Shown here in pieces: positions 13,366 to 54,027 of a stretch of DNA of 64,000 nt (its first letter is position 1; every line of letters begins with the position of its first letter). A program made the translations under genes and the position numbers. The stretch is from contig OZ024746.1 of NCBI GenBank assembly GCA_964016885.1, positions 4,588,001-4,652,000 on the forward strand, read 5' to 3'. The notes under the pieces were generated by a model. That model was not told where the DNA came from and made no database searches. It saw nothing but the letters and a program-made list of their open reading frames with translations. The stretch comes from Eledone cirrhosa (Eukaryota).

Positions 13366-13590
13366 TGTTTACTAAAATAACAGATTAAAGTTTATGCAAA
13401 GAATCGCTGCTTTCACCCTTAACGGGATCTTCTGAAACATCGTTAAGGGTGAAAAGGGTGAAAGCAGCGATTCTTTGCTTAAACTTTAATCTGTTATTTT
13501 AATAAATATTTGCTCTGCGGTTCTTATATATTTGATATATAGTTATCCTTATCGAGCCCTCTTTGGATTTTAGTCTTCACATTTATTATT
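13366..13590. mobile_element. short inverted-duplicated PLE pseudo-LTR-like element with degenerate hammerhead
   Basis: Arms 13366-13424 and 13441-13508 are inverted; minus strand reads GTTT CAGAAGA T CCC GTTAA GGG T GAAA GCA..TGC(A)T AAAC; between (TA)n tracts. Confidence 0.6.
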
Positions 13591-13614
13591 ATTACTATAT
13601 ATATATATATATGT

Positions 13615-13957
13615 AGATAAATCTACCAAAATATACGGTAGTGTCCAATCCGTATGAAGAACTCAATGTAATCCAAATATCATGAAAAGAGAAGATGTAT
13701 TCAAAATTTTTTCGATGAAAAACACAGGAAAACAGAGTCAAGATAAATTAATAAAAACAATGAATAAAAACAAAAGACAGCATATATATGTGTAGGTATG
13801 TATATTCCCTCTGATAGTTTGTAAAATTTTTACATAGATCTATATGATATACATACCAACACACACATATATATCCTAGAAACGATCGTAAAATGATGAA
13901 TTTTTTAATATAAGGAACTGTTTTTTTTTGTTTTTATTCATTGTTTTTACTAATTTA
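13615..13957. mobile_element. PLE pseudo-LTR-like element with inverted end and 5'-truncated hammerhead (second copy 36755-37100)
   Basis: Homologous copies; each has an inverted TAATAAAAACAATGAATAAAAACAAA arm and GAAACGATCGTA; flanked by (TA)n. Confidence 0.6.
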
Positions 13958-14010
13958 TATATATATATATATATATATATATATATATATATATATATAT
14001 ATATATATAT

Positions 14011-14210
14011 TTAACTGGGTGATGTCTAAAAACATCTGACTGATAAAATGACAAGTCAGTCAATCATATTGGTGGCCTCCCACAGCCCCGGCGGACAGAA
14101 TGGAGAAGGCGTTTCCTCGGAGGACGGCAAGGGAGACGCGCTGGAAAAGCCATTCCAGCTCACTGGGCTCACACCTGCGGCTGGCCAACCCAGCGCCTGT
14201 GGTGGTGAGT
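14011..14210 (-). pseudogene. 3' end of a CRE-like RLE retrotransposon, homologous to 1390-1610
   Basis: LASRRCEPSELEWLFQRVSLAVLRGNAFSILSAG...*, then a short 3' UTR abutting (TA)n. Confidence 0.75.
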
Positions 14211-50282: not shown

Positions 50283-50655
50283 TTAGGTCCCAAATAATAG
50301 AGGGGTGGAATAAAGGAGAAAGAAGATTGAAATAAGCGGGGGTGGGGTGGAAAATCGATAATTTTTCTTGGTTGTCTCCGTTGACTTTTTCTTAAAAACC
50401 AGAATTAGTCGTTTAGTTTACTTATTGAGACCGCAACCCATTCTATTTATTTTATAACATATGGGATTTCTATAATGTACTTTTTTTGTCCTGTATAATG
50501 TTTTTTAATGTCTAAAGAAGATTAATTATCGCAGGAATGCTACCACTTAAAATAAAATTTCGCTGGAGATAGATTAGGAAAATTTAATAATCAGAGGGGA
50601 GGGTTGAAAAATTAAAAAAATTAATAAGCGGGGTGATTATTCGGGACCTAGAAGT
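50283..50655. mobile_element. MITE of uncertain superfamily (partial second copy 61156-61445)
   Basis: Inverted ends TAGGTCCCAAATAAT / ATTATTCGGGACCTA; homologous body in the second copy. Confidence 0.7.
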
Positions 50656-52320
50656 ACATCTAAACTATAATAAAGTAAGTTGTGCGGGACTGCGTCCAGA
50701 ATATATTTTTTATCCCGTTTGTAAAATAAGTTGGATTAGTTTAAATAAATAATTGTTTCTACTTTTGGCACAAGGCCAGCAATTACCCAGTGTATTACTG
50801 GTACTTTATTTTATCGACCCTGTAAGGATGAAAGACAAAGTTAACCTCGGCAATGAATGACTATTACATCATTTATCTACTAAATTTTGTTATTCTTGAT
50901 TAAATATAAATAATTTTGTTGCTTATTTTAAGATTCACTTTAAAATTTTCAAATGTCAACATTTTCGGTTAGCGATCGCTTAAATAAACATTCTTATATT
51001 TCCGTCACTAATTTTCTCCTAATGCAGTTTACATATAATATCGTCTTTTTTTAATGTATCATGGATTACGTTACTGATTACATAAGACAGTGTAACGTAG
51101 TCTTCGTTCAATTTCTGTGGATATTGTCAATTACGATTTTATTTGATGTATCATATCTACATGTATATATACTTGCGTATAATATCAATATACAGACTAC
51201 ACATGCTAGCAGAAAATGTTCTACTAGTCTCAATAAAAGAGGTAAAACATTCTTTAAATACTTAGAAATAGAAATGTTGAAGATCTAGAATATGATCGAA
51301 CATGCCAACCCTGGACGCCATAAAACCTAATTTTAAAATATAGAAAAATGAAAGCGCAATTTTCTGAAGTTCAACATATATATTTTCATTGAAATTATAA
51401 ACATTTCTTTTTTAGAAACTGTTATGTTTTTTGTGATTTTGTATTTGTTTTTTTTTTAAACGAATAATTCGAATAATTAAAGAAAGTTAGATAACATCTA
51501 TACACGGAACTTTCAATGTTAACTGAAGTTGGAATGATGCAGAAAGAAAAAGAATGAGAATTTCAAACGAAGTTTCTGAAAATCTCGCTTATATGAAAGG
51601 CAGTGAGAGACTTGTCCTTTCCTACGTATCTCTGTATCTTTCTATTGTATTTAAATACGATACTATTGTCTGAACTTGTTTGCATAAAATGTTGTTTATT
51701 TGCGACCCCACTCAGAAAATAATTGACACATTCAACCTTTAGCTAATAATTTAAATTTAGTTTTTCTTATTCAATTATTTGGCCTTCTTTGCAGAGTTAG
51801 ATATTATAGTCATTATTCACTGAAGGGGAGGGTTGGTTTGTAGCTTCGAATGGAAGTAGATTTGTTAACCCTAATTGACTTATACAATAATTAAACTTAT
51901 ACAGTAATTAGAAATACTTTGAGAAGAATCCATATTTTGCTAATTTATAAAATAAGACCTCATTAAGAAACATCTCATGAGAGAAAAAGTATGAATTTGA
52001 TAGAAAATTAGAAAATTAGTATTTAACATAGAAATTCATTAAATGCTGCAGTTAAAACTGAGAAACGTATTCAACATATTCGATACTTACACATGCAGTG
52101 ATGTACAGTTGATTTGATTATATATCATTAATTCGTTTATTGATTAGTGTATTCACTAAATATACAATTACGCTGGAGAGTAATAAGGTGTAATGTTCTT
52201 TTAATGATGAAGTCGAAGTTGGAGAATGATGTATTAATTCGGTGACTTCCGTAATCTCTCTCTTTCTCTCTCTCTGTATATATATATATATATATATATA
52301 TAGAGAGAGAGAGAGAAATC

Positions 52321-52369
52321 GCTTCTACAGGACTAGAACTGTTTCATTCGAAGAAAATCATCAGGAAAC
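52321..52369 (-). ncRNA. type I hammerhead ribozyme with U-U-closed short stem II, in an inverted duplication
   Basis: GTTTC CTGATGA TTTTCTTCGAAT GAAA CAG TTCTAGTC CTG TA GAAGC: stem I GTTTC/GAAGC, stem III ACAG/CTGT, GUA triplet. Confidence 0.72.
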
Positions 52370-54027
52370 AACAGTTCTAGTCCTGTAGAAGCCATTTCTA
52401 TATTAAAAAGTTATACTCTGTTATTTATTGAGTACCTTACTTACTGTGGTTACCCCCGATTGAACACGGGATACACACACACACACACACACACACACAC
52501 ACACACACACACACACACACACACATATATATATATATATATATATACACACACATTTGTAAGAGTGCATGTGTGTGTGTGTGTGTGTGTGTGTGAAGGG
52601 AGAGGAAGAAGGTGGGGAGTCAGTAAGGAGGGAAATTTCGGACTGCCTGTAGGTTGTTACTAATTTACTTATTGGAAAATGATATTTTTCGACATGAAAT
52701 ACGGGCTTCTATCAGTAATCTCTCCATATCAAGTCCCTACCTCTAGATATCCCCCTTATCTTAATGTTACTCCAACGTCATCGTTCCTGTGTCAATTAAA
52801 GTTTGTTTCTACCGCAGTATTTTCTGACCATTGTATGTAATGGTTCGGTCTAGTCAGTATTATCAATTTGACATTCAGTAAGCTGGATGCAGCATGGCCG
52901 AATATTTAAGAAGTTCTCTTTGGAATCATGAGGCCTCGAGTTCGATCTCACTGTTGGATTCTACCTATAATTCAAAGAACCAGTCAATGAATAACATTAA
53001 AGTCAGACGTGTCTGGAATGTTCAATCACTTACTAGTTAATTTCATGTACATGCTGTTCTGTTGATCGAACAAATCGAACCTTGTTCGTCGCAACCGACG
53101 GTTGTCCATTTGATTCAATAGGAATTTATTAAGTACTATGTGGTCATGACCTCCAGTTCATTTCAACCAGTAAAATACTCTAAAACTACTTATCTAGAAA
53201 AGTTGTGGTTATTGTGTCCAAAGCAATATGGCTCCTAAATGGATTCAGTAAATTCTAGCGTCTTGATTTAAAACTGAAATATCACTCAAACTAATGTGTC
53301 AATAGTCCAGTTAGTGAACATCACTAATGTAATGAAATCATGTGTTATAATTACTATTATCGATAAAATAGTTGCTAGGATATTCTGCAAAACAATTTGA
53401 ATCCCCCTGAGAAGACTAATATATTTAAGATGATGTCTATCCGAAGAATGCATCATGAAACTCGTCAGTGGTTCTCACCAGAACAAGTAGGTTTAATGAA
53501 ACGAAGCAGAATATTTATAGAAATTTATACATTGATACGTTGGTTCTAGTGAAGGTACATGGCTTAGTAGTTAGAGCGTTGGGCTTACAATCGGAAGATT
53601 GTGAATTCGATTCTCGAACGGGGTGATGCGTTGTGTCCTTGAGCAAGACACTTTATTTCGCGTTTCTCCAGGAAAGAATCGATAGATAGATGTTAGGGGT
53701 GAAACCAACCGACAGGAAACCTAGGAGTAGAATGATTGGAGAACGTCCATGAGTTCGACTGATATCGTTTAAGGATACAGCCGGATCAATTGTGTTCAGT
53801 TGTTTTTGACAAGAGCCACTGGAAGGAGTATTTGGGGGGGGGGGTCTGCCCCATGACTCTCTCGGGAAGAAGAAGAAGAAGAAGAATACTTATGGTTGTG
53901 TAGAAGCTTCATTTACACGACTTACACAAAGCTTTAGGGGTTTCTAGCCGCTATCTCCAGATAAACTACAATACTAAAGCTGTTTCCAAAAGGTCTCGTA
54001 TATATATTCTACTGGAGCTAAATGAAA

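Follow-up and report, generated by a model that had tools for sequence, protein, structure and literature searches.

Inversion joints of Penelope-type insertions in Eledone cirrhosa cluster at a probable start of the element RNA

The window analysed here is a stretch of 64,000 nt of the Eledone cirrhosa genome (contig OZ024746.1, positions 4,588,001 to 4,652,000), which contains seven head-to-head insertions in (TA)n, derived from five families, labelled F1 to F5 for this analysis. They are Penelope-type insertions, in which a pseudo-long terminal repeat (pLTR) carrying a hammerhead ribozyme (HHR) is accompanied by an inverted copy. A sequence-only reading of the window had noted that the inversion joints repeatedly fall inside the ribozyme, and had taken the folded HHR to be a stop or strand-switch site for reverse transcription (RT). 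Genome-wide searches in the 3.0-Gb assembly show that the breakpoints cluster at one hotspot per family; judged from the genomic copies, this hotspot is probably the capped transcription start of the pLTR RNA, and the head-to-head joints probably arise when both ends of the target prime RT. Positions are given relative to the predicted ribozyme cut site (0) unless stated, and +1 denotes the inferred family-specific start.

Breakpoint clustering and the extra G

Copies were sampled, in chromosome order, through 3'-end tags located downstream of the ribozyme: 66 F1 loci (67 of 100 listed places) and the first 30 each of F2, F3 and F4. The sequence-only reading had found its elements through their ribozymes, and had named this as a possible source of the pattern; the clustering of breakpoints survives the ribozyme-blind sampling. 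Among the 66 F1 long arms, 24 start within -130..-105 (mode -125), 28 read further and 14 are shorter. Stops within a hotspot window of 17-26 nt, relative to the copies reaching it, are 24/52 for F1, 14/25 for F3, 17/20 for F4 and 3/13 for F2, against an expected stop probability of 0.013-0.04 derived from the upstream rate (binomial p 2e-31, 7e-14, 7e-29 and 0.003, respectively, for windows set after the data had been seen); the hotspot is therefore real. The F1 starts were curated manually and two rows (L143, L211) amended in the same way; for 23 F1 copies, -400 was taken as an approximate read-through length.

F1 head-to-head joints were also counted genome-wide by pattern (motif, gap of 0-30, motif), with three patterns which may differ in subfamily coverage: 691 joints were found at the front edge of the ribozyme, 37 around the cut site and one at a control position about 50 nt upstream. 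A first genome search, biased because it began inside helix II, is excluded from these counts. Four short-read contigs of another organism (X4) show this F1 joint too, as a loose-end consensus, so this class of joint is not peculiar to the present assembly. A master subfamily beginning at -125 was considered as the origin of the F1 stoppers and rejected, since on the tree stoppers are interspersed with read-through copies, some rows of the two kinds being identical.

Three families have their hotspot at the 5' foot of helix I: F1 (-125), F2 (-46) and F3 (-45/-44). In F4 it is found at -41, in loop II and 48 nt into the ribozyme, and in F5 about 90 nt before the core: of 58 F5 arms with a core, 40 do not read through, and 15 of these begin at -92..-81 relative to it. 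The location of +1 at, in or before the hammerhead, depending on the family, is likely a coincidence. A folded hammerhead acting on RT would account for the joints of F1-F4, which lie inside the ribozyme or at its edge. Moreover, 10 of the 37 F1 joints around the cut centre on the palindromic helix III, and the ribozyme sequence thus shapes some joints via microhomology. The hotspot does not track ribozyme anatomy across families, however, and this part of the sequence-only reading is not sustained. A block by the fold would be expected, we infer, at its 3' foot (-5..+21), and is left unsupported because none of the 66 F1 long arms starts there; similarly, none of 30 F5 arms tagged at the cut site breaks between core and cut. 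In F1-F3 nearly the whole ribozyme is copied before the hotspot is reached, 28 of 52 F1 copies read through it, and an F4 RNA with its 5' end at the hotspot would be missing half of the ribozyme, the 5' one, and could therefore not fold it. With the extra G reported below, these data make a stop or strand switch caused by the fold very unlikely.

In read-through sequence a pyrimidine|A step is present at the hotspot in all five families, and TATA-like words occur about 30 nt before +1 in F3 and F4, which is the usual spacing between TATA box and initiator. An initiator and an internal promoter have been documented in the Penelope pLTR, in passages of PMC2377424 and PMC3846280. In F4 (L138, L154, L159, L078) the 5' strand of helix II contains the TATA-like word and loop II contains +1, so that the putative promoter and the ribozyme overlap. 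The 5' end of the RNA could instead result from processing, either by poly(A)-type cleavage followed by recapping or by an exonuclease stalling at helix I, the G being produced by generic untemplated C addition. AATAAA/TATAAA words located 12-16 nt before +1 in F1, F4 and F5, and the coincidence of +1 with the foot of helix I in F1-F3, would suit such an origin. We regard it as distinctly unlikely, given that the F4 and F5 hotspots are away from that foot, that F3 and F4 have TATA-like words at about -30, that the Penelope pLTR promoter described in PMC2377424, in the part cited, has an initiator, and that G is missing at the five exact cut-site joints described below. A splice-acceptor origin of the 5' ends, an idea drawn from an intron end at helix I in D. 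virilis (reported in a passage of PMC4209133), was rejected: F2 and F4 arms keep the AG, the F1 +1 has none, and the fillers hold no constant exon-1 sequence.

A 190-bp tRNA-type short interspersed element (SINE), also present in the window, is inserted exactly at the F1 +1 in 30 of 100 listed rows. Eleven such insertions were examined (L003, L015, L043, L044, L047, L087, L107/L164, L160, L161, L165, L166); all lie in read-through copies and are independent, differing in length and target duplication, for which reason a SINE-bearing master lineage was discarded. The F1 +1 looks over-used by the SINE, perhaps as open promoter DNA. Read differently, the eleven independent events could mark the hotspot as an ATT site nicked by the endonuclease on the new copy, and a passage of PMC11167929 reports a preference for ATT in another Penelope-like endonuclease. 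Yet ATT is absent from +1 in both the F2 and the F4 hotspot, the SINE favours ATTAT everywhere (48 of 64 ends), and a nick leaves the G unexplained; nicking therefore seems extremely improbable.

The G in question immediately precedes the hotspot. Of 4,582 F4 rows in which a purine precedes +1 (AGTCCAG), the first 100 were scored by eye and gave 88 G and 12 A; removal of 26 G explainable by the other arm leaves 62 G and 12 A (p 5e-19), against a genomic background where A is about twice as common as G. A scripted recount on 30 of those loci gave 26 G and 4 A, while 25 unselected F4 arms gave 7 G, 1 A, 8 C and 9 T, C and T being the genomic letters. A read-through subfamily with a genomic G before the F4 +1 was rejected as the source, as the eight upstream letters are heterogeneous and four read-through copies have C or T. 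In F1, G precedes the hotspot at -1 in 15/34 rows and at -2 in 2/34 (Fisher p 0.0005, scored by eye). The sample consisted of the first 100 of 2,118 rows without genomic C, from which 30 SINE rows, 4 read-through rows and 32 rows accounted for by the other arm, by the target or by a stutter were dropped; a separate F1 count, including ten loci (L275-284) picked for showing G, was not used. Both arms carry G at six loci, some of them G-selected, and four of the six have a filler of 1-3 nt (L146, L166, L238, L279). In L1 and SVA, untemplated G at full-length 5' ends has been interpreted as a copy of the cap, according to a passage of PMC4859970.

The templates had been proposed to be uncleaved at this ribozyme. 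For most copies this is upheld, since 691 F1 joints lie at the front edge, compared with 10 or fewer located no more than 3 nt from the cut; in vitro, uncleaved RNA was already shown to be the main template, as stated in part of PMC11167929. Ten of the 37 F1 joints around the cut, having gaps of 0-3 nt, were fetched: all are true F1 insertions, with arms reaching to about +194 and +62/66, and six have both arms exactly at 0. One of the six is explainable by TTAA microhomology, assuming the letters of its subfamily, and five are not. None of the 10 arms of these five joints has an extra G, and they serve as an internal control for the G counts. Because the five insertions start exactly at the cut in both arms, without microhomology or G, about 1% of F1 joints likely come from ribozyme-cut RNA, and for them the proposal would fail; it does not suit F4 either, as the RNA from +1 is without the 5' half of the ribozyme.

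An RNA starting at +1 is thus suggested by the clustering of the 5' ends, the extra G, the shared sequence types, the continuity between pLTR and open reading frame (ORF), exemplified by the F1 pLTR running on into an ORF at L161, and the start of an intact F3 element (L315), which begins a few bases before +1.

Formation of the inverted pairs

Within each family, short arms end at a fixed inner site (+62/66 in F1, +28 in F2, +26/28 in F3, +20 in F4) and long arms at a fixed outer site (+194 in F1). The long arm of 9 of the 11 inverted F2 loci begins close to the inner site, at +14..+61, and the short arm therefore contains stretches absent from its partner; at L033, L096 and position 13774 of the window, too, non-overlapping arms meet close to the inner site. 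When arms were compared, the nearest or joint-nearest arm was the own partner at 20/22 F1, 10/14 F3 and 12/28 F4 loci. Joints often hold short stutters or templated inserts (L048, L285; 13446-13463 and 36786-36801 in the window), which we take to resemble the products of polymerase-theta-type end-joining. Passages of PMC11167929 report that Poseidon_Ac extends both target strands in vitro and uses two internal start sites.

In the mechanism proposed, +1 would be an RNA polymerase II start at the pyrimidine|A step and the extra G a copy of the cap. Both ends of the cut (TA)n target would prime RT, one at the outer and the other at the inner site, on the same or on a sibling RNA. Each cDNA would run to the 5' end of the RNA, or the outer one would stop short close to the inner primer, leaving arms that do not overlap. 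Joining of the cDNAs at their 3' ends, with small trims, microhomology or filler, would then move the apparent restart by a few bases into the ribozyme. Copies extending past +1 would derive from priming in the downstream pLTR of ORF-containing RNA, and a small minority of templates would already be cut by the ribozyme.

The second arm might instead be a fold-back, self-primed copy of the first cDNA, made on an RNA with the same capped start. This is close to the self-priming described in passages of PMC3846280, from which it differs in the template, antisense there and sense here. Many joints are near-perfect palindromes with centres of 0-7 nt, and the arms share private 9-mers in 7 of 22 F1 loci, as expected for such a copy. 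It is nevertheless unlikely as a general explanation, since every family has a fixed inner site at which the second arm ends, since that arm often holds sequence missing from the long arm (9 of 11 F2 loci; 13774 in the window), and since joints with G on both arms have, at three loci, a filler of 1-2 nt, below the minimal size of a hairpin loop and thus too short for priming. Double priming followed by end-joining is what we infer for the pairs in general, while fold-back may apply to symmetric cases, and a later deletion could mimic some asymmetric joints.

Several points weigh against a capped start primed from both target ends. Start site and cap are read from the genomic G signature, and a search for F1 in RNA datasets listed no holder. 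The F2 hotspot is weak; that of F5 is broad, its 15 arms being spread over 12 nt, with one clear case of extra G; and in F3 the G coincides with a genomic G and is uninformative. No TATA-like word is found at -30 in F1, F2 and F5, and the AATAAA/TATAAA words also fit a processing site. In three of five families +1 is within a few bases of the foot of helix I, and structure may matter. Among six extended F1 loci, no full-length copy starts at +1. Concordance between partner arms is weaker in F4 and could in general reflect one source locus or gene conversion, and double priming does not explain how two full cDNAs are made from one RNA.

The insertions of the window and their families

The arms found in the window are listed below, with coordinates in the window and strand.

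13365..13438, minus: F2 short arm without tail, running from 1 nt past the inferred +1 to the inner priming site (about +28)
13441..13594, plus: tailed F2 long arm; its restart in helix/loop II follows a 2-nt filler, and it ends in (TA)n
13614..13774, minus: F1 long arm, +34..+194, without ribozyme
13774..13958, plus: F1 short arm, -115..+66; restarts at CTG|AAGA
23378..23432, minus: F3 short arm; starts 5 nt past the inferred +1
23435..23485, plus: F3 long arm; starts 10 nt past +1 (CTGA|TGA); the aligned part ends here and a diverged tail goes on
35410..35551, minus: tailed F4 long arm; begins in loop II, 2 nt past the inferred +1
35553..35607, plus: F4 short arm; runs from 2 nt past +1 to the inner priming site (+20), with a 1-nt filler at 35552
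36753..36783, minus: F1 inverted piece, +31..+62
36786..36801, minus: F1 inverted piece inside the junction, -117..-101
36800..37101, plus: F1 long arm, -108..+193; restarts near the start of helix II
38965..39240, minus: tailed F5 long arm carrying the whole ribozyme (core at 39124); overshoots the inferred +1 by about 23 nt
39238..39376, plus: F5 short arm; starts 38 nt before the core (39276), whole ribozyme
40154..40235, minus: F2 3' stub, without ribozyme or inversion
52314..52368, minus: F3 short arm; starts 3 nt past the inferred +1
52370..52473, plus: F3 long arm with tail; restarts at GA|AAC, 27 nt past +1

All seven junction coordinates of the sequence-only reading are correct, and the window has one further F2 stub, at 40154..40235, that had not been listed there. 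At least one arm lies within 10 nt downstream of the family +1 in six joints, the restart named in that reading being often the more trimmed arm. Restarts had been placed just upstream of the cleavage site; in F1 they are actually 108-115 nt upstream of it. The joint at 35552 is correctly positioned, but it is not in stem II, as both F4 arms start at +2 in the loop of helix II (here counted from the start).

The F2 short arm at 13365..13438 has an atypical core, CAGAAGA; its partner restarts at CGTTAAGGG, in helix/loop II, and shows a 9-nt tandem stutter near its start. The two F1 arms at 13774 are nearly non-overlapping, a twin-priming layout in which the partner arm starts at +34, outside the ribozyme; none of the short-read contigs over 13615-13955 spanned this joint. 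The joint near 36800 is made up of three pieces (+31..+62 inverted, -117..-101 inverted, and -108..+193), the middle one likely being a templated insert. The F5 pair keeps both ribozymes, as had been stated for 39024-39376, with cores at 39124 (minus) and 39276 (plus); its long arm extends beyond the inferred +1 and would therefore have been copied from read-through RNA.

The ribozymes are type I hammerheads, with the core boxes and helices I-III. Helix I covaries in F1 (n=117; ATCATTT/AAATGAT in 17, ATTATTT/AAATAAT in 33, a G-U form in 35) and in F3 (AGATTC/GAATCT, GCTTTC/GAAGCC). Minimum-energy folds are three-way junctions for F3 and F4, and are without a full junction for F1, F2 and F5. 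Core variants are found in F4, mostly U3-A8 (UUGANAA), and in F2, with A at position 4: F2 copies (L169-L198; 13424-13430 of the window, minus strand) show CAGANGA in place of CUGANGA, and position 7 varies across copies, as in a ribozyme core. Among 150 of the 204 rows of an Rfam scan there is no hammerhead, only microsatellite-driven microRNA noise and tRNAs. In one F1 subfamily (L045, L072, L086, L098) a tandem duplication of -339..-104 creates a second partial core upstream.

Exact-tag matches in the genome number 4,427 for F1, 11,788 for F2, 8,159 for F3, 21,390 for F4 and 28,266 for F5, the last not being a single count as the tag is matched by both arms. The F1-F4 stubs are truncated ends of autonomous Penelope-like elements, and not separate mini-elements, because longer copies of these families lead into ORFs; this link covers F1-F4. 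An intact F3 ORF of 713 aa at L315 contains YRDD and a GIY-YIG-like motif (IVY..YIG), and the F1, F2 and F4 ORFs align at 36-55% identity. The L315 ORF further contains motifs of the Hydra clade: RWR at 38, DKT at 116, CNCLNKEAC at 566 (CxCx5C), CDLC at 666 (CxxC) and CMH at 694 (CxH). With a single predicted ORF combining reverse transcriptase and C-terminal GIY-YIG, the element appears to be an endonuclease-containing (EN+) Penelope-like element. A Pfam search gave nothing above cut-off, GIY-YIG being sub-threshold (E 0.019-0.049) and the reverse transcriptase family unmatched; 471 longer relatives were found, nearly all without names.

A ribozyme-bearing segment stands before the ORF, and again after the 3' untranslated region, at L161, L315, L317 and L319, as expected of pLTRs. 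The inverted 5'-truncated partner and the one-sided tail are also as in EN+ Penelope-like elements, and bear out, together with ORF and pLTR, the earlier attribution to Penelope-type insertions with an inverted pLTR. The insertions have (TA)n flanks, as in the Hydra clade; the cores are canonical, again as in that clade, in F1, F3 and F5, and variant in F2 and F4. Non-LTR retrozymes, defined in part of 10.64898/2026.07.22.740005 as non-coding tandem units with a whole HHR in each, were rejected as an identity for F1-F4, the stubs being ends of ORF-containing elements and intermixed with read-through copies.

Elsewhere in the window, a head-to-head pair of the 190-bp SINE is located at 4154-4573, with about 20 more copies. 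Three tRNA matches lie on the minus strand (58889-58960, 63265-63336, 37794-37864), the first two identical over 75 nt (anticodon GUC). Minisatellites with periods of about 28, 42 and 36 bp occupy 2846-4105, 28269-29443 and 45452-45711, respectively, and a gap of 200 N spans 29488-29687. In an inverted-repeat scan of the window (TA)n dominated the output. Two inverted repeats, small and imperfect, at 41512-41586 and 59351-59401, match none of the five family references.

Comparison with known elements and significance

EN+ Penelope-like insertion units, in the descriptions cited from PMC8557442 and PMC3846280, share with the present ones 5' truncation, an adjacent inverted copy, a palindromic joint, a tail on one arm, an HHR in the pLTR and a (TA)n target. 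Tails are about 130 nt here (F1), compared to the 30-40 nt described. Self-priming on an antisense template is put forward in PMC3846280, whereas the present joints point to a capped sense template primed twice; the passages of both papers used here contain no joints mapped to a capped start. Poseidon_Ac, as presented in part of PMC11167929, is alike in the extension of both strands, in two internal start sites bounding the tail and in uncleaved RNA as main template. The same part reports no RNA reads at the cut site, where five insertions start here, and does not address inverted joints.

The Hydra clade, in the cited part of PMC8557442, is alike in the C-terminal GIY-YIG, RW[K/R], DKT, the CxCx5C linker, CxxC and CxH near the end, an ORF of about 713 aa, (TA)n insertion and the HHR. 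It differs in RWK, here RWR, and in units "generally <3 kb", the F2 unit being 3.26 kb (PMC8557442). Differences are also seen in the non-canonical cores of F2 (A at position 4) and F4 (U3-A8). Motifs, rather than a tree, would place the F3 ORF in this clade.

In L1, arms produced by twin priming are largely non-overlapping, with variable breakpoints. Here the second primer is at a fixed element site, and the arms usually overlap and both appear to reach the cap. L1 is alike in 5' inversion via second priming and in untemplated G at full-length 5' ends, both mentioned in the cited passage of PMC4859970.

The origin of the Penelope head-to-head repeats is stated to be open in PMC8557442, in the part cited. 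The architecture of the elements is already known, and the mechanistic reading is absent from the literature searched. No paper mapping Penelope inversion joints to a capped start was found in this search, which left out most subscription papers and supplements; those of PMC8557442 and PMC11167929, papers used here in part, could bear on such a mapping.

We lean, on balance, towards regarding inverted pLTRs as fossils of double target-primed RT on capped sense RNA, from which a genome would record, family by family, the transcription start with single-base precision and a rare class of cut templates; one family would start inside its own ribozyme, and only its read-through RNA would self-cleave. 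Penelope-like elements are the sister group of telomerase reverse transcriptases. With five families in one genome, transcription start and ribozyme anatomy can be told apart, as would not be possible from a single family. The joints give base-level predictions, namely a capped sense template, two priming sites and end-joining of two cDNAs, and they provide indirect in vivo evidence that the hammerhead cuts and that the cut RNA is rarely used (about 1% of F1 joints).

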